Positions 1-6,504 of a stretch of DNA of 6,504 nucleotides are shown in pieces; position 1 is the stretch's first letter, and each line of letters opens with the position of its first letter. Location of the stretch: IMG/VR virus record IMGVR_UViG_2529293063_000012, positions 1-6,504 of that record; one strand, given 5' to 3'. The notes under the pieces are model-generated. The model had not been told where the DNA came from. It made no database searches and saw nothing but the letters and a program-made list of their open reading frames with translations. A program made the position numbers and the translations under genes. The DNA is from a virus. Its lineage: Duplodnaviria > Heunggongvirae > Uroviricota > Caudoviricetes.

Positions 1-1
1 C

Positions 2-1090
2 GGTGATGATAGTCCTGAAGCTCGGCGTATCACCCGCCGATGGGGTATAACTGAAGTAGCAGATTTAATTGGTGTAACTCCTCAAGCAATTAGAGATGCT
101 GAAAAGAGCGGGCGTTTACCTGCACCTGACTTTGAAATGAGAGGAAGAATTGAACGTCGTGCTGGTTATACCATAGATCAAATCAACAGTATGCGAGCAG
201 TTTTTGGCAACCCAAACCAACGACCACAAGATAAAAACCCTGTTGTGCTTGCCGTTATGTCACACAAAGGCGGCGTTTATAAAACATCGTCTGCGGTGCA
301 TCAAGCTCAATGGTTAGCATTACAAGGTCATCGTGTTCTTTTGGTTGAAGGTAACGATCCTCAAGGCACGGCCTCTATGTATCACGGTTATGTTCCTGAT
401 TTACATATCCATGCCGAGGATACTTTACTGCCATTTTACTTAGGAGAACGCGATAACGCTGAATATGCTATAAAGCCAACATGTTGGCCTGGGCTAGACA
501 TTATCCCTAGCTGCCTAGCTTTACATCGTATAGAAACAGATCTCATGCAATATCATGCTCAGGGTAAATTGCCTCATCCTCCACACCTTATGCTACGCGC
601 AGCTATTGAATCAGTTTGGGATAACTACGATGTTATCGTTATAGATAGTGCTCCGAACCTCGGTACAGGAACCATTAACGTTGTTTGTGCCGCTGACGTT
701 ATTGTTGTTGCTACACCTGCAGAATTATTTGATTACGCTTCTGTTCTGCAGTTTTTCACAATGCTTCTCGATCTATTGGAAAGCGTTGACCTAGGTGGAT
801 TTGAGCCAACCGTTCGCTTACTTCTGACTAAATATAGTCTCACTACAGGGAATCAATCACGATGGATGGAAGAACAAATAAGAAATACATGGGGATCAAT
901 GGTATTACGTCAGGTTGTACGCGTTACCGATGAAGTAGGTAAAGGCCAGATAAAAATGAGAACAGTATTTGAACAAGCAGCAAACCAACGTTCAACATTG
1001 AATGCATGGAGAAATGCTGTTTCTATATGGGACCCTGTTTGCCGAGAAATTTTTGATGATCTAATAAAACCTCGCTGGGAGAACGAATAA
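2..1090 (+). CDS. sopA: Partition ATPase SopA/ParA (type Ia Walker-type), 5'-partial: reading frame is open from position 2 with no stop, so the true start lies upstream of the window
   Basis: Translation from position 2 gives GDDSPEARRITRRWGITEVADLIGVTPQAIRDAEKSGRLPAPDFEMRGRIERRAGYTIDQ..., which continues into the ORF-track protein. It contains the deviant Walker A box (SHKGGVYKTS) and long stretches that match F-plasmid SopA as I recall it (e.g. VLLVEGNDPQGTASMYHG, KPTCWPGLDIIPSCLALHRIE, DVIVIDSAPNLG). The Met at 137 in the ORF track is internal. Confidence 0.9.
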   Translation, partial: GDDSPEARRITRRWGITEVADLIGVTPQAIRDAEKSGRLPAPDFEMRGRIERRAGYTIDQINSMRAVFGNPNQRPQDKNPVVLAVMSHKGGVYKTSSAVHQAQWLALQGHRVLLVEGNDPQGTASMYHGYVPDLHIHAEDTLLPFYLGERDNAEYAIKPTCWPGLDIIPSCLALHRIETDLMQYHAQGKLPHPPHLMLRAAIESVWDNYDVIVIDSAPNLGTGTINVVCAADVIVVATPAELFDYASVLQFFTMLLDLLESVDLGGFEPTVRLLLTKYSLTTGNQSRWMEEQIRNTWGSMVLRQVVRVTDEVGKGQIKMRTVFEQAANQRSTLNAWRNAVSIWDPVCREIFDDLIKPRWENE

Positions 1091-2055
1091 TGAAACAGCG
1101 CTCTCTTCTGAAAAATGCTCCAGATATTAATCGCATTATGAGTAATAATCATCATGCCCCTGAACATCAGCCCGTATCACCTATGGTTGGTGATTTAAAA
1201 CGTCAACTGAGCTCATTAACCGGTAACAGCATAACTTTGCCAGTATGCGGACGTAATGTTAACTTTAAGTTAGAGACAATTCCCGCAGATAAAGTTGAAA
1301 TGGCAACAATGGTATGGCTAGGTAATGAACGCGATCAAGATTTATTAAATGAATCCTCTCTAGCCGATTTAATCCCATCTTTTCTAACGTCTGGACAACA
1401 AAATCCAGCTTTCGCCAGAAAAGTATCTGGAATCGTTGAAGTCGCTGACGGCTCACGTAGAAGAAAAGCAGCGATATTAACAGGATGTGACTATCGCGTC
1501 TTAATTGGTGATCTCGACGATGAACAGATGCATTGGTTATCCCAAATTGGTAACGATTATAGGCCTATTAGTGCATACGAAAGAGGAAAGAGATACTTAC
1601 GCAAGCTAAATGACTTTGATGGTAACGTTAAAGCATTAGCCGAGGCTGAAAATATAGATAGAAATATTATCACTCGCTGTATCAATACAGCTGGTCTACC
1701 AAAAGATATATTAGCTATCTTCAATCATCCAGGAGAACTGTCAGCTCGTGCTGGAGATTCTTTGTTTAAGGTTTACAAAAAAAACATGGCTGCCATGAGC
1801 AATGCTGCTCATCATCTTCTGGCAATTAAAAAAAACGGCGAGGATTTAGAATCTTCACGGATTATACAAATATTATCTGACTCTGTTCTGGTTGGCGACG
1901 AGGAAAAAACAAAAGACGAGAAAAAATATGGGGAAGGGATCACTGCTAGATATAAAGGTAATTTTGTAACTATAAAAATTGATAGCCGCAAAATATCTAA
2001 AGAAATACTAAGCAGAATTGAGTTGTTACTAGAGGAACAATCTACTGATACTTAA
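1090..2055 (+). CDS. sopB: Partition centromere-binding protein SopB/ParB
   Basis: 321-aa ORF whose ATG overlaps the sopA stop by 1 nt (TAATG at 1088..1092), with GGAG about 9 nt upstream. Motifs match F SopB as I recall it (ITLPVCGR, WLGNERDQDLL, DLIPSFLTSGQQNPAF, VSGIVEVADGSRRRKAA, LSQIGNDYRPISAYERG, IITRCINTAGLPK, FNHPGELSARAGD). Confidence 0.9.
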   Translation: MKQRSLLKNAPDINRIMSNNHHAPEHQPVSPMVGDLKRQLSSLTGNSITLPVCGRNVNFKLETIPADKVEMATMVWLGNERDQDLLNESSLADLIPSFLTSGQQNPAFARKVSGIVEVADGSRRRKAAILTGCDYRVLIGDLDDEQMHWLSQIGNDYRPISAYERGKRYLRKLNDFDGNVKALAEAENIDRNIITRCINTAGLPKDILAIFNHPGELSARAGDSLFKVYKKNMAAMSNAAHHLLAIKKNGEDLESSRIIQILSDSVLVGDEEKTKDEKKYGEGITARYKGNFVTIKIDSRKISKEILSRIELLLEEQSTDT

Positions 2056-2059
2056 GAAG

Positions 2060-2082
2060 TATCCCCTGCATTGCAGGGGATA
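2060..2082. terminator. Perfect palindrome (11-bp arms, 1-nt centre) between convergent sopB and invertase genes; probable bidirectional intrinsic terminator, alternatively a protein-binding site
   Basis: TATCCCCTGCA-T-TGCAGGGGATA read directly at 2060..2082. It lies 5 nt after the sopB stop and about 22 nt from the invertase stop, with a T-rich stretch (TATTGATTTA) following on the + strand. Confidence 0.4.
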
Positions 2083-2104
2083 TTGATTTATGGTTGTACT
2101 CCAG

Positions 2105-2659
2105 TCAATGATTCCCAGCCGGAAACCTGCGGTAAAGCGTGGATAAAGCAACATCGAAGATAATCGCTATCTGTTTACGTGAAACACCATTCACAATAAG
2201 CCTTCCGACCTGTTCCCATTGCTCGGGTGCCAGTTTTGAGCGGCGCCCCCCTATCCTACCGTTAGCCCTTGCCACCGCTAATCCTGCACGCGTTCTTTCA
2301 ATAATATTTTCCCGCTCCATCTCTGCGACCGCACTCAGCATTGTGTAGGCAAAGCGGCCAATTGATGTGCTAATTTTTATTCCTTCTGTAACAGAAATAA
2401 ATTCAATGTTGTTTGATAAAAAATAGTTAAGCAATTCAACAAGATGAATCAGAGAACGCCCCATTCTGTCCAGCTTCCAGACAATAACCGTATCACCCGG
2501 TCGTAACGCTTTTATCAGCTTATCCAGTCCTGGTCGTTTTGACTTCGCGCCAGATATTTTATCTTCAAAAATCCGGTCACATCCTGAACTCCTGAGCGCT
2601 TCCAGTTGTAACTCCAAATTCTGGTCAAAAGTTGACACTCTCGCATAGCCGTATTGCAT
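2105..2659 (-). CDS. Serine-recombinase DNA invertase of the Gin/Cin/Hin/Pin family
   Basis: 184 aa with N-terminal catalytic motif YARVSTFDQ (Ser9), resolvase-domain motifs VWKLDRMGRS and AEMERENIIERT, and a C-terminal HTH (RKQIAIIFDVALSTLYRRFP) closely resembling Gin/Hin. Size and position next to a crossover site fit the family. Confidence 0.9.
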   Translation of the reverse strand: MQYGYARVSTFDQNLELQLEALRSSGCDRIFEDKISGAKSKRPGLDKLIKALRPGDTVIVWKLDRMGRSLIHLVELLNYFLSNNIEFISVTEGIKISTSIGRFAYTMLSAVAEMERENIIERTRAGLAVARANGRIGGRRSKLAPEQWEQVGRLIVNGVSRKQIAIIFDVALSTLYRRFPAGNH

Positions 2660-2694
2660 ACTTTCTAACCTGCAATTGTTGCTGAAAGCGGGAA

Positions 2695-2723
2695 AAAATA
2701 TCGTTCAGACGACACGGAGGCAA
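2695..2723 (-). promoter_or_regulatory. Candidate sigma70 promoter for the invertase gene (-35 TTGCCT, 17-nt spacer, -10 TATTTT on the minus strand), abutting cixL
   Basis: Read on the reverse complement of 2660..2730: TTGCCT-(17 nt)-TATTTT, about 35 nt upstream of the invertase ATG, with AGG..GAAAG before the ATG. The match to consensus is weak (4/6 and 4/6). Confidence 0.25.
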
Positions 2724-2749
2724 TTCTCAAAAACCTCGGTTTGCAGGAA
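2724..2749. repeat. cix/gix-like 26-bp inversion crossover site, left (cixL)
   Basis: TTCTCAAAAACCTCGGTTTGCAGGAA. Its reverse complement matches the site at 5974..5999 at 22 of 26 positions and resembles the Mu gix sequence as I recall it (TTCCTGTAAACCGAGGTTTTGGATAA). It lies between the invertase gene and the Sv cassette. Confidence 0.75.
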
Positions 2750-3898
2750 ACGGTAAATAAGGCTTCTGGCGCATTACAGAAAAACCAGAACGGCGCAGAT
2801 ATTCCCGATAAAAAACTATTCCTGCGTAATATCGGCACAACAAATTCAACAACCATGTCTTTTAGTGGTGGTGCTGGATGGTTCAAACTGGCAACTGTAA
2901 CAATGCCACAAGCCAGTTCCGTGGTTTACATAAGCCTGATTGGTGGCGCAGGGTATAACGTTGGCTCCTCGCATCAAGCAGGCATCTCTGAGCTGGTTCT
3001 GCGTGCCGGAAATGGGAATCCAAAAGGTATTACTGGTGCATTATGGCGACGGACCTCGGTTGGATTTACTCATTTTGCATGGGTGAATACATCCGGTGAT
3101 ACCTATGACATTTATGTAGAAATAGGTAATTACGCCACAGGTGTTAATATTCAGTGGGATTATACCAGTAACGCCAGCGTAACGATTCATACATCACCAA
3201 CTTATACAGCGAATAAACCAACAGGCCTGACAGATGGAACTGTATATGTAATTTACAGTTCGCACATTAAACCGACTGCTGCTGAGGTTGGGGCGTTGTC
3301 ATTATCTGGCGGTCAATTGAATGGTGCACTGGGCATCGGAACATCCAGTGTTCTTGGCGGTAACTCGATTGTTTTGGGGGATAATGATACTGGTTTCAAA
3401 CAGAACGGCGATGGCCTTCTTGATGTTTATGCTAATAGTCAGCATGTATTCCGTTTCCAGAATGGCGTGGCTATTGCTTTAAAAAACATTCAGGCCGGAG
3501 ATGGTAAAAAACTCTCGCTATCAAGCTCCAACAACTCCACAAAGAATGCAAGGTTTAATTTATGGGGTAATTCATCCCGCCCCGTAGTTGCAGAACTTGG
3601 TGATGATTCAGGTTGGCATTTTTATAGTCAAAGAAATACAGATAATTCAGTATTGTTCTCCGTTAACGGTCAGATAAACCCCAACAACTGGAGTAACTTT
3701 GATTCTCGTTATGTGAGAGATGTCCGACTTGGTACACGTGTTGTTCAGACTATGCAAAAAGGCGTGATGTATGAGAAATCAGGTCATGCAATTACGGGGC
3801 TTGGCATTATTGGCGCTGTTGATGGCGATGATCCGGCTGTATTCAGACCAATACAAAAATACATCAATGGCACATGGTATAACGTCGCACAGGTATAA
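2741..3898 (+). CDS. Tail-fibre variable C-terminal cassette Sv; silent in this orientation (no ATG; the TTG at 2741 in the ORF track is probably not a real start)
   Basis: The frame is open back to a TAA at 2666..2668 with no ATG between 2669 and 2740. The N-terminus encodes GLQETVNKA, the same junction peptide as in the expressed fibre (GLQETVNRA). The protein is Gly/Ser/Thr/Asn-rich and its C-terminus (NFDSRYVRDVRLG..., PIQKYINGTWYNV) parallels the Sv' C-terminus. Confidence 0.8.
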   Translation: MQETVNKASGALQKNQNGADIPDKKLFLRNIGTTNSTTMSFSGGAGWFKLATVTMPQASSVVYISLIGGAGYNVGSSHQAGISELVLRAGNGNPKGITGALWRRTSVGFTHFAWVNTSGDTYDIYVEIGNYATGVNIQWDYTSNASVTIHTSPTYTANKPTGLTDGTVYVIYSSHIKPTAAEVGALSLSGGQLNGALGIGTSSVLGGNSIVLGDNDTGFKQNGDGLLDVYANSQHVFRFQNGVAIALKNIQAGDGKKLSLSSSNNSTKNARFNLWGNSSRPVVAELGDDSGWHFYSQRNTDNSVLFSVNGQINPNNWSNFDSRYVRDVRLGTRVVQTMQKGVMYEKSGHAITGLGIIGAVDGDDPAVFRPIQKYINGTWYNVAQV

Positions 3899-3901
3899 TT
3901 T

Positions 3902-4045
3902 ATGCAGCATTTAAAAAATATTACTGCAGGTAATCCCAAAACTATCGAACAGTATCAACTTACAAAAGAATTTGATGTTATCTGGTTATGGTCCGAAGAC
4001 GGAAAAAACTGGTATGAGGAAGTGAAAAACTTTCAGCCAGACACA
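3902..4045 (+). repeat. Internal inverted repeat, arm 1 (5' end of U), ~88% nt identity to the reverse complement of 4848..4991
   Basis: Manual alignment of 3902..4045 against the reverse complement of 4848..4991 gives a 22-nt and a 48-nt perfect block (AATCCCAAAACTATCGAACAGTATCAACTTACAAAAGAATTTGATGTT) plus scattered mismatches. Identity starts exactly at the ATG. Confidence 0.8.
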
Positions 4046-4429
4046 ATAAAGATTGTTTACGATGCAAATAATATTATTGTCGCCATCACCAAAGATGCCT
4101 CCACGCTTAACCCTGAAGGTTATAGCGTCGTTGAGGTTCCAGATATTACAGCCAACCGCCGCGCTGATGATTCCGGTAAGTGGATGTTTAGGGACGGAGC
4201 TGTGGTTAAACGGATTTATACGGCAGACGAGCAACAACAACAGGCCGAATCACAAAAGGCCGCGTTGCTTTCTGAAGCTGAAAGCGTTATTCAGCCACTG
4301 GAACGCGCTGTCAGGCTGAATATGGCGACGGATGAGGAGCGTACACGACTGGAGTCATGGGAACGCTACAGCGTTCTGGTCAACCGTGTGGATACAGCAA
4401 AGCCCGAATGGCCACAAAAGCCTGAATAA
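3902..4429 (+). CDS. Tail-fibre assembly chaperone (U/Tfa family) cognate to Sv
   Basis: 175 aa starting 4 nt after the Sv stop (TAATTTATG). The N-terminal ~45 aa are nearly identical to the minus-strand paralogue ([26 protein letters not shown].WLWSE.GKNWYEE). Position directly downstream of a fibre tip is typical for Mu U and P2 G. Confidence 0.85.
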
Positions 4430-4434
4430 AAATT

Positions 4435-4454
4435 AAGGCCCGCTATCGGGCCTT
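4435..4454. terminator. Bidirectional rho-independent terminator hairpin between convergent U and U'
   Basis: AAGGCCCG-CTAT-CGGGCCTT, a GC-rich 8-bp stem with a 4-nt loop, sits in the 28-bp gap between the U stop (4427..4429) and the U' stop (4458..4460). Confidence 0.6.
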
Positions 4455-4457
4455 GTC

Positions 4458-4991
4458 TCATTCAGGTTGTTCGGGAAATATTACTGGCAGGCTGGAGGTG
4501 TCTGTAGATTCGACTTTCTGCGCATAGAGCATCCACTCGGTTAATTTTTGTTTATTCTCGTCGGAAATGATGCCCAGCCGTAGCTGTGAGTCCCATAGCT
4601 GTGTTTTATCCCTGACGAGCTGTAGCAGGCTTTGCTTTTCATTTTCCGCTTGTTGCCTCTGCTCTTCCTCGGTATAAGTTCGCTTTATCACTACGCCATC
4701 TTTGAACATCCAGTTGCCGGAAATATCAGCGCGTCGGTTTGCCGTAATATTGGGTAACTCAACCACACTCATTCCCTCTGGATTAATCAGGGATACATCT
4801 TTCTCAATACAGCAAATAACACCCTCCTGGTTATATGCCACTTTTAACGTGTCAGGCTGGAAATTTTTCTGTTCCTCATACCAGTTCTTACCTTCTTCCG
4901 ACCATAACCAGACAACATCAAATTCTTTTGTAAGTTGATACTGTTCGATAGTTTTGGGATTTCCTGCTTTAATATTTTTTAAATGCTGCAT
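4458..4991 (-). CDS. Tail-fibre assembly chaperone (U'/Tfa family) cognate to Sv'; start placed at the ATG at 4991 (the ORF track extends to a GTG at 5000)
   Basis: The protein from MQHLKNIKAGNPK... parallels U. The ATG at 4991..4989 follows the Sv' stop (4995..4993) in a TAATATG arrangement, with AGGA about 10 nt upstream. The C-terminal half diverges from U. Confidence 0.85.
   Translation of the reverse strand: MQHLKNIKAGNPKTIEQYQLTKEFDVVWLWSEEGKNWYEEQKNFQPDTLKVAYNQEGVICCIEKDVSLINPEGMSVVELPNITANRRADISGNWMFKDGVVIKRTYTEEEQRQQAENEKQSLLQLVRDKTQLWDSQLRLGIISDENKQKLTEWMLYAQKVESTDTSSLPVIFPEQPE
4848..4991 (-). repeat. Internal inverted repeat, arm 2 (5' end of U')
   Basis: Reverse complement aligns to 3902..4045 at ~88% identity (see arm 1). 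Confidence 0.8.
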
Positions 4992-4992
4992 A

Positions 4993-6504
4993 TTAAGCAC
5001 GTCCTACATTGTACCAATGACCATTAATATATTTCTGAACAGGAGCGTAGACAGGCCATTCTCTCGAATCATCAAAGTTGCCACCTGTCAGAACGTATCC
5101 GGCTGGAACCGTTCCGCCATCACCACCCCAGACAATCCCACTCTGGTTAGCACCCATGCGAACGTCACGAACATAGCGTGAGTCAAAATTACCATAATTG
5201 CCGGGAATAATTTGCGAGCCGCAAAGCCAATTCCCGTTATTATCCATGTACGCCTGACCATCGGTGCCATTGTCTGTCCTTGAGTTATTAATCATGTAGA
5301 TGCCAAATTCCCTATTCCCCAGTCCACCAATCATAAATTTGCGGTCAGCATGGTCCTGACGTAGCAATGCCTGGGCGCTATCAGTTTTAACTATATTTCT
5401 CCCAAAGATAGCGTTGTTATCGCGCATCTGAATCCACATACCATTACTGCTGTTAATAGCAAAACGGTTTGCAAATATATCCCCTGTAACATCAAGACCA
5501 TGCCCCATGCTTATCCGACCAGTTCTAAGATTAAGCGTAAAGGGGCGTAGTGGCCCTATATCACCATTTTCTCCCTCATTCTCTCGTGTAGGGATGATAT
5601 GCAGGCATTCTTCAGAACGACGAAAAATAGCACCAAAAGATGAATTAAATATCCTCAGTGCATTGACTGTCGATATTTTTACTTCACTGCTGAAAAGGGC
5701 TTTAACAAGGACAGACAAAGCATCCCATTTAAGATTCATCAGGTCTTTTGTTGTGGTGCTCTGGCGGCTTCTCCATTTGAAATATTCATTGCCGTTGTCG
5801 CCTGTTTCAAACCACATGTATGAATCAGTGTCACCATCAGCATCATTTTTAAATCCAATCTTCGCCCAGTCAGTATTTCGAATCCAGGCAAGGATAGAGT
5901 CGTTTTCAAAAGTAAGCCCACCGGACAAGGTATCGCCATTCTTTTGCACGGCGTTCCTGGCCCTGTTTACCGTTTCCTGTAAACCGAGGTATTCGATAAC
6001 GGCAGCAACGGTCGATTTCGCAAGAATATCCCGCCCGACTTTTGTCAGGGTTGCCAGGCTGGCGACATCATTCCCCGTAAAATACGGAAACCTGTCTGCC
6101 GCAGTAGCAAGCCCGGCCAGCGCCGTCAGGGTGGCATCTTTCGGTTGCTTACCCGCAAGCGCGTTAGTCATGGTGGTCGCAAAATTCGGGTCGTTGCCCA
6201 GCGCCGCCGCTAACTCGTTCAGCGTATTCAGTGCGTCAGGCGACGAGTCTACAAGGGCGGCAATCGCGGCCATCACATAAGCCGTACTTGCGATCTGAGT
6301 ATTATTAGTACCTTTTGGCGCAGTTGGCGTTGTTGGCGTTCCGGTCAGTGCAGGACTATTTAAGGGCGCTTTCTTGTTCGTTTCATCCATTACCGCCTTA
6401 ACCGCTTTTGGTGTCGCAGCCAGCGTTTCAGACGGGCTGTTAGTGGCGCTACTGAGCTGAACTATCCCTTTTCGTGCCGTCGTTGCGTCCTGAGCGGTAT
6501 ATTT
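4993..6504 (-). CDS. Tail fibre protein: constant N-terminal part (Sc, entering from the right window edge, 5'-partial) fused in frame to the variable tip Sv' (about 5973..4993); this is the expressed fibre in this orientation
   Basis: The minus-strand frame is open from 6504 through the ATG at 6390 with no stop (upstream peptide KYTAQDATTARKGIVQLSSATNSPSETLAATPKAVKAV-MDETNKK...). This region and PDALNTLNELAAALGNDP are typical of the conserved tail-fibre domain in Mu S / P2 H-like fibres. The crossover site lies inside the coding sequence at the GLQETVN junction. The C-terminus (NFDSRYVRDVRMG..., PVQKYINGHWYNV) parallels Sv. Confidence 0.85.
   Translation of the reverse strand, partial: KYTAQDATTARKGIVQLSSATNSPSETLAATPKAVKAVMDETNKKAPLNSPALTGTPTTPTAPKGTNNTQIASTAYVMAAIAALVDSSPDALNTLNELAAALGNDPNFATTMTNALAGKQPKDATLTALAGLATAADRFPYFTGNDVASLATLTKVGRDILAKSTVAAVIEYLGLQETVNRARNAVQKNGDTLSGGLTFENDSILAWIRNTDWAKIGFKNDADGDTDSYMWFETGDNGNEYFKWRSRQSTTTKDLMNLKWDALSVLVKALFSSEVKISTVNALRIFNSSFGAIFRRSEECLHIIPTRENEGENGDIGPLRPFTLNLRTGRISMGHGLDVTGDIFANRFAINSSNGMWIQMRDNNAIFGRNIVKTDSAQALLRQDHADRKFMIGGLGNREFGIYMINNSRTDNGTDGQAYMDNNGNWLCGSQIIPGNYGNFDSRYVRDVRMGANQSGIVWGGDGGTVPAGYVLTGGNFDDSREWPVYAPVQKYINGHWYNVGRA
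5974..5999. repeat. cix/gix-like 26-bp inversion crossover site, right (cixR), embedded in the tail-fibre coding sequence
   Basis: TTCCTGTAAACCGAGGTATTCGATAA matches the reverse complement of 2724..2749 at 22 of 26 positions, with homology extending about 8 nt further into the segment (TTTACCGT). It is very close to the Mu gix sequence as I recall it. Confidence 0.75.

Follow-up and report, generated by a model that had tools for sequence, protein, structure and literature searches.

Probable two-state switching of a side tail fibre by a Gin-type invertase in an N15-like linear phage-plasmid

Introduction

Does an N15-like phage-plasmid of Escherichia coli encode one side tail fibre or two? 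The question is raised by a 6504-nt stretch of tailed-phage DNA (Caudoviricetes; positions 1 to 6504 of the IMG/VR virus record IMGVR_UViG_2529293063_000012), referred to here as the window, in which a gene for a DNA invertase lies beside two tail-fibre cassettes. An initial annotation, made from the letters of this stretch, described a working phase-variation switch that toggles the receptor-binding tip of the fibre. We find that the window, from an N15-like linear phage-plasmid, very probably holds a switch of the Gin type, in which site-specific inversion sets the side tail-fibre gene to one of two states. In mechanism and parts, it is a switch of the type represented by the Mu G, P1 C and e14 P segments. 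The constant part of the fibre is called Sc here, the two cassettes that can follow it Sv (silent in the window) and Sv' (joined to the fibre), and the tail-fibre assembly chaperones that trail them U and U', respectively. The coordinates of all features are collected in Table 1.

Crossover sites and the fibre reading frame

The cassettes Sv+U and Sv'+U' are convergent and are bracketed by two 26-bp sites in inverted orientation. The left site (2724-2749, + strand) reads TTCTCAAAAACC-TC-GGTTTGCAGGAA and the right site (5974-5999, - strand) reads TTATCGAATACC-TC-GGTTTACAGGAA. They have 22 of 26 bases in common, with the same TC core, each on its own strand, and, as first described, they are inverted and not direct. 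In a repeat search of the window, they form part of an inverted repeat with arms of 40 nt (2724-2763 and 5960-5999, 85 % complementary), the exact outer ends of which are 2724 and 5999. A degenerate site pattern, allowing up to 3 mismatches, matched the window at these two places only, and was found 0 times in 200 shuffles. With the AAACCNNGGTTT centre and up to 2 mismatches, there were 6 matches against 3.6 expected by chance. As only two matches to the pattern are present in the window, this is a two-site system; no extra crossover sites, as in a Min-like multi-site system, were found.

When aligned to known sites, both are nearly identical to gix of phage D108 (e.g. TTATCTAAAACCTCGGTTTACAGGAA). 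The gix of D108 and Mu is TTATCTAAAACC-TC-GGTTTACAGGAA, and the window sites are far closer to it than to the cix of P1, which has a TT core. This corrects the initial annotation, which had named the right site cixR.

The right site encodes part of a conserved fibre linker (...EYLGLQETVN...). Each of the two sites is part of the fibre reading frame, within this linker, so the constant part can be joined to either cassette. On the minus strand, the fibre frame is open from 6504 (…KYTAQDATTARKGIVQLSSATNSPSETLAATPKAVKAVMDETNKK…) through the right site to a stop at 4993, and thus runs in frame into Sv' (4993 to about 5973), as the initial annotation had stated. The current Sc-Sv' fusion is 503 aa, counted from the window edge. 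Inversion of 2738-5985 at the cores in silico kept the frame and gave an uninterrupted Sc-Sv fusion of 559 aa from the window edge, in agreement with the earlier view that inversion would join the fibre to Sv/U (2750 to 4429). The silent cassette and its chaperone are free of stops and frameshifts in the open reading frame listing.

Both sites, the invertase and both cassettes, all claimed to be present, were found intact. The complete switch had been placed in 2724-5999, which is correct for the sites and the cassettes; the invertase gene lies outside it, at 2105-2659. The constant N-terminus of the fibre had also been placed here. Part of Sc is indeed present, and the N-terminus itself is beyond the right edge. 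Met6390 was considered as the start of the fibre and rejected, since no stop interrupts the frame between this ATG and the window edge; it is an internal codon, and the gene starts beyond the window. In a close relative (locus L005), the complete fibre has 1011 aa and an N-terminus of the phage_tail_N, lambda-Stf type, and the 503 residues in the window align to its residues 499-1008. Positions 6395-6504 correspond to one unit of a tandem repeat of about 132 nt in the constant part (Phage_fiber_2, ...ATTARKGIVQLSSATNS...), and this unit matches three successive places in another fibre gene (L002:10194-10458). The switch was said to have been caught with Sv' expressed; what the DNA shows is the in-frame join, as expression cannot be read from it.

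Both orientations in copies with an identical invertase

The exact invertase protein was looked up in public assemblies, and ten loci were compared with the window. All are 98.8-99.9 % identical to window positions 1-2763, and thus have the same backbone and the same invertase. The junction of the invertase side with Sv is found in the window, L012, L013 and L007, and the junction with Sv' in L011, L006 and the second arm of L005. In all relatives, the outer half-site TTCTCAAAAACC beside the invertase is constant, and the inner half-site is swapped together with the cassette.

The cassettes found in the flipped copies are those of the window. The silent cassette of L011 is identical in 318 of 318 aa to the cassette that is fused to the fibre in the window. 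In L006, Sc and Sv are fused naturally, and this fibre and the product of the in silico flip are 94 % identical over 559 aa. Both states are present in the single contig of L005, one in each arm around the telomere hairpin. Among these assemblies, copies of the same lineage with a 100 % identical invertase thus occur in both states. The initial annotation would have been contradicted had the inverted orientation been seen nowhere. Flipped copies with the same invertase protein exist, and the contrast of L011 and L006 with L012 and the window, together with the two states in L005 and in the ATCC 25922 element described next, supports the reading as a working phase-variation switch.

A sister switch in E. 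coli ATCC 25922

A 48.5-kb phage-plasmid of E. coli ATCC 25922 encodes an invertase identical to that of the window in 173 of 184 residues (94 %), including the same Thr at the position of His106 in Gin. Two records of this element, CP009073 and CP158444, differ by a single clean inversion of 3071 bp; otherwise, their identity is 99.97 %. An A/G difference in the inner half-site travels with the segment and the outer halves stay, so the exchange is confined to ACC-TC-GGTTT. A further record (NZ_CP032086.1, 94 204 bp) contains about two head-to-tail units of the 48.5-kb phage-plasmid, in which the fibre segment is in opposite orientations, one state in each. One of the two units has several frameshifted genes.

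Among complete E. coli records with full-length junctions, nine have the junction of the invertase with an Sv-type cassette and eight with an Sv'-type cassette. Judged by these records, this family of switches is active, and nothing in the window suggests a disabled copy. The switch also accounts for differences between the assemblies recorded for the reference strain ATCC 25922.

The invertase and its candidate enhancer

The invertase open reading frame is intact and matches the Pfam families Resolvase (E=2.9e-45) and HTH_7 (E=1e-13). Over its full length, the protein matches the structures of Gin (3UJ3 and 4M6F; E=1.8e-62); the match to 3UJ3 (residues 2-181) scores 213 bits, against 112 bits to gamma-delta resolvase. 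It is identical to Gin in 100 of 181 residues (55 %) and to Cin in 104 of 181 (57 %). R7, S9, D64, R65, R68 and M114 are retained in the alignment with both. The invertase is thus a small serine recombinase with the Ser9 nucleophile, the conserved Arg/Asp residues and a C-terminal helix-turn-helix, and it is nearer to characterised invertases than to resolvases. We take His106 of Gin, which is replaced by Thr in the window invertase, to be a site of Fis-independent mutations. The change M114V renders Gin Fis-independent (PMC3575834). Segment 70-110 of the invertase is the most diverged, with about 40 % nucleotide identity to gin and cin.

The gene is directed away from the invertible segment. 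The P1 record annotates an enhancer at nt 19-90 of cin. In the corresponding candidate region of the window gene, GTGTCAACTTTTGAC is found at nt 22-36, and CAGGATGTGA, at nt 74-83, is shared with cin and gin. A simple scan for Fis-like G-N13-C motifs gave plausible G...C 15-mer candidates, which are not diagnostic. We regard this region as a positional homologue of the P1 enhancer, and an enhancer within the 5' part of the invertase gene is inferred by analogy.

In the public assembly collection, the index lists the exact invertase protein for 146 blocks; in 94 of these, the longest contig that carries it measures just 2-5 kb. The left crossover site and the telomere palindrome (see below) are about 3.2 kb apart. 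Given these lengths, short-read assemblies may typically be interrupted at the invertible segment as well as at the hairpin end.

The two cassettes and their chaperones

Each cassette is trailed by its own Caudo_TAP gene. The Sv' cassette matches residues 175-503 of the Mu tail fibre S structure 5YVQ (E=1.5e-142) and is 66 % identical to S of D108 and 69 % to S of P1. Its shaft is of the Mu S, P1 S and P2 H type. The last approximately 60 aa are 39 % identical to S', and the tip is distinct from both S and S'. Such tail fibres are trimers. U' is 88 % identical in amino acids to U' of D108, 86 % to U' of P1 and 58 % to U. The silent Sv resembles Mu S only over its last 89 aa, which are 80 % identical to the tip of Mu/D108 S, and its chaperone U is 95 % identical to U of D108 and 94 % to U of P1. 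On these comparisons, the cassettes are mosaic. The labels Sv and Sv' used in the initial annotation hold only in part: they suit the chaperones and the tip of the silent cassette, but the fused cassette has a shaft of the Mu S, P1 S and P2 H type.

The 5' ends of U and U' form a longer inverted repeat (3901-4050 and 4843-4992; 150 nt, 90 % identical). Homologous recombination might act on this repeat, and would then exchange the C-termini of the chaperones and leave the fibre untouched.

Proposed mechanism and alternative explanations

In the mechanism that we favour, dimers of the invertase would bind the two gix-like sites and synapse them. In Mu, P1 and Salmonella, an enhancer bound by Fis assists in this; here, one in the 5' part of the invertase gene itself probably does the same. 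Both sites would be cut at the central TC, one half of the complex would rotate by 180 degrees, and religation would leave the 3.25-kb segment turned over. The constant N-terminal part would then be joined either to Sv' and then U', the state of the window, or to Sv and then U, and the silent cassette has neither a start codon nor a promoter of its own. A population of lysogens would release virions with two receptor-binding tips, and so would spread its risk over hosts. The sequences show the layout, the two in-frame fusions, the family to which the enzyme and the sites belong and the presence of both states in near-identical copies; the dependence on Fis and an enhancer, the rate of flipping and the receptors of the two tips are matters that we infer.

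Several points weigh against a working switch. A flip of the window's very molecule was not observed, and the evidence is comparative. The 5' end of the fibre gene and its promoter are beyond the window, so expression of the fibre is presumed. Contig breaks near the segment could also stem from similar fibre sequences of other prophages. No sigma-70 promoter candidate for the invertase passed the promoter scan; the best found by eye is TTGCCT-17-TATTTT, just inside the left site, with 8 of 12 matches. When the gene was compared with cin, gin and the ATCC 25922 gene, no excess of synonymous-site conservation was found in the enhancer region relative to the rest of the gene. Finally, with Thr in place of His106 of Gin and Cin, regulation may differ from that of Gin. 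The lack of a convincing promoter, an enhancer that is not demonstrably conserved and the Thr would all suit a frozen relic, in which the parts look intact and the orientation is permanent, for example through an unexpressed invertase or a lost enhancer. This is nevertheless very unlikely. Many assemblies share the invertase protein unchanged (100 %), near-identical copies are found in both states with precise site-level junctions, the invertase of ATCC 25922, 94 % identical and with the same Thr, flips its segment in cultures, and the silent cassette and its chaperone are undamaged.

We consider it less likely than any other alternative that the two orientations arose by homologous recombination between inverted repeats, or as assembly artefacts, and not through the invertase. 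Short-read assemblers can mis-orient segments flanked by inverted repeats, and the 150-nt repeat of U and U' is the longer of the two repeats available. However, the breakpoints fall in the 26-bp sites and not in the 150-nt repeat, and in ATCC 25922 they are confined to an interval of approximately 10 bp around the TC core. The repeat at the crossovers, of only 40 nt and 85 %, is a poor RecA substrate, and the ATCC 25922 assemblies compared are complete plasmid records whose sole difference is the inversion. A remaining proposal accepts the inversion and places its main role in the lysogen, where the chimeric fibre of one orientation would alter the host surface and block other phages. Inversion-made Stf chimeras that block T2 adsorption have been described for PinQ/StfE2 of e14 (PMC12529663), and the element persists stably as a plasmid prophage. 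On the other hand, each cassette is a full-length tip that comes with an assembly chaperone, and in relatives the cassettes lie at the end of an intact tail module (J, Lom, Stf), as a virion host-range switch needs. Fibre expression in lysogens is not indicated by anything in these data, and a main role of this kind is most improbable.

Comparison with known inversion systems

The closest parallel in layout is the G segment of Mu and D108 with its invertase Gin. The order is the same (Sc, site, Sv, U, U', Sv', site, invertase), gin is transcribed away from the segment, as is the window invertase, and the 26-bp sites with a TC core are nearly identical. The differences from Mu lie in the invertase, which is only 55 % identical to Gin and has the Thr at His106, in the constant part, which is about 170 aa in Mu and about 680 aa and of the lambda-Stf type in the lineage of the window, with a siphovirus-type tail module, and in the element, a transposable phage in one case and a linear plasmid prophage in the other. 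The fused cassette of the window also differs in combining a Mu-S-like shaft with another tip and a U'-type chaperone.

The C segment of P1 is likewise in a plasmid prophage, with an invertase of the same family (57 % identity to Cin) and an enhancer annotated inside the 5' part of the recombinase gene. However, cix has a TT core and other half-sites, cin faces the segment and overlaps cixL, and P1 is a myovirus with a circular plasmid. Pin, the serine invertase of the e14 P segment and of related prophage systems of E. coli, is of about the same length (184 aa) and inverts the DNA for Tfa chaperones and for the C-terminus of a side tail fibre of the lambda-Stf type; e14, in contrast, is a defective chromosomal prophage. 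The switch of ATCC 25922 shares the fibre-side half-site, the A/G polymorphism of the inner half and cassettes that are 90-95 % identical in nucleotide sequence, but its backbone is unrelated, with a RepA replicon, P2-like contractile-tail baseplate genes and an 800-aa fibre; in the window, the module adjoins parB/sopA of a telomere phage. The Min system of p15B is plasmid-borne, with a Gin-family invertase and tail-fibre cassettes, and differs in having six crossover sites and many cassette permutations, against exactly two sites in the window. A shufflon, as in R64, where the tyrosine recombinase Rci acts on 19-bp sfx repeats in a pilus-tip gene, was rejected, since here the recombinase is a serine recombinase and the target a phage fibre.

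The traits of the Gin/Cin/Pin/Hin (Din) family, namely the enzyme, the inverted sites with their imperfect dyad symmetry, the in-frame swap and both orientations in nature, can all be recognized here at the sequence level. For telomere or N15-like phages, our literature search found no description of a DNA invertase or an invertible fibre. Phage tail fibres do figure in general surveys of programmed inversions (e.g. PMC9881135). What is new here is the telomere phage-plasmid as host and the combination of cassettes; the mechanism is within the Mu/P1 paradigm.

The host element and its mosaic joints

The sopA/parB region of the window shares 98-99.9 % nucleotide identity with plasmids that have an adjoining protelomerase and a CyRepA1-family replication protein. 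In the relatives, the SopA/ParB operon is found in N15-like phage-plasmids of about 46-48 kb. On one flank are the protelomerase, Icd-like and BRO genes and the CyRepA1-family replication protein, and on the other a lambda-like tail module with J, Lom, Stf and Tfa. L005 contains a perfect palindrome of 2x51 nt (L005:11121-11222; CCCCATTATACGC followed by GCGTATAATGGGG), centred 437 nt upstream of sopA, and its centre presumably matches the N15 telomere site. Beyond the palindrome, the contig is its own reverse complement, as expected when reading round a covalently closed hairpin end. The host is thus an N15-like linear telomere phage-plasmid, as judged from features that are found in the relatives and of which the window contains only sopA/parB.

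Other members of this backbone have J, Lom, Stf, a macro-domain gene and Tfa directly beside parB and lack the switch, which is therefore a variable module. In one switch-less member (L018:6117-10986; pAH01-1, NZ_CP055252.1), the macro-domain gene lies between a 1132-aa side fibre gene and the chaperone gene, beside parB. For many N15-like plasmids, a 99 % match to the window ends at 2100, beyond which these plasmids run directly into a gene for tail-fibre assembly and lack the invertase. In chromosomal prophages, the match to the window begins only at 2719-2724. The boundaries of homology are therefore at the crossover site (2719-2732) or at the end of the invertase gene (2098-2100). The window is mosaic, and for this reason searches of the plasmid, phage and E. 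coli collections gave no match that covers 80 % or more of it.

The same invertase protein (WP_001199266.1) is also found in a phage-plasmid with RepA and a P2-like contractile tail. Its presence in two unrelated backbones, one of an N15-like telomere siphovirus and the other of a P2-like myovirus with RepA, with boundaries at the sites and the gene end, would fit intermolecular exchange at gix-like sites. On this basis, the invertase and its sites could be a portable host-range module and not a fixed part of one phage, which we regard as unlikely. If true, invertase-mediated intermolecular exchange would be a route by which tips move between phages. The Thr found in this clade at the position of His106 in Gin might relax Fis control.

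Other features of the window

A hairpin of 12 pairs at 2058-2084, AGTATCCCCTGCA-TTG-CAGGGGATATT, sits between the stop codons of parB and the invertase gene (Table 1), and may act as a terminator in both directions or as a site to which a protein binds, for instance in partition. The second hairpin, at 4435-4454, has the same position as terminators annotated in D108 between U and U'. A scan of the window against Rfam gave zero matches, and no specific invertase or fibre model of NCBIfam reached its cut-off.

Table 1. Features of the 6504-nt window in order of position
Feature	Coordinates	Strand	Basis or remark
sopA, 3' part (off left window edge), and parB/sopB (1090-2055)	1-2055	+	Pfam AAA_31/CbiA, SoPB_HTH; context, outside the switch
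12-pair hairpin, candidate terminator	2058-2084		Between converging parB and invertase genes; terminator-like scan
DNA invertase, 184 aa, Gin/Cin/Pin/Hin family	2105-2659	-	Resolvase and HTH_7 domains
Candidate recombinational enhancer (Fis-binding region)	2570-2641	-	Homology to annotated P1 cin enhancer
Left crossover site, invertase side, gix-like	2724-2749	+	2-bp core TC at 2736-2737
Sv, silent cassette, 382 codons	2750-3898	+	In frame with left site; own start codon absent
U, tail-fibre assembly chaperone of silent cassette, 175 aa	3902-4429	+	Caudo_TAP, E=2.8e-37
G+C-rich hairpin, candidate bidirectional terminator	4435-4454		Between converging U and U'; hairpin scan
U', chaperone of fibre-joined cassette, 177 aa	4458-4991	-	Caudo_TAP, E=8.9e-36
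Sv', cassette now fused to fibre, 326 codons	4993-5973	-	Mu S match
Right crossover site, fibre side	5974-5999	-	Core GA on + strand at 5986-5987
Sc, last ~168 codons of constant fibre part	6000-6504	-	Open reading frame open to window edge; Phage_fiber_2 repeat

Significance

For host-range prediction, or for use as a vector, one genome sequence of such an element shows one of two fibre states. The silent cassette, here a Mu-S-type tip with its U chaperone, must also be counted when host range is predicted. N15-type telomere phage-plasmids of E. coli can carry a tail-fibre switch of the Gin type.

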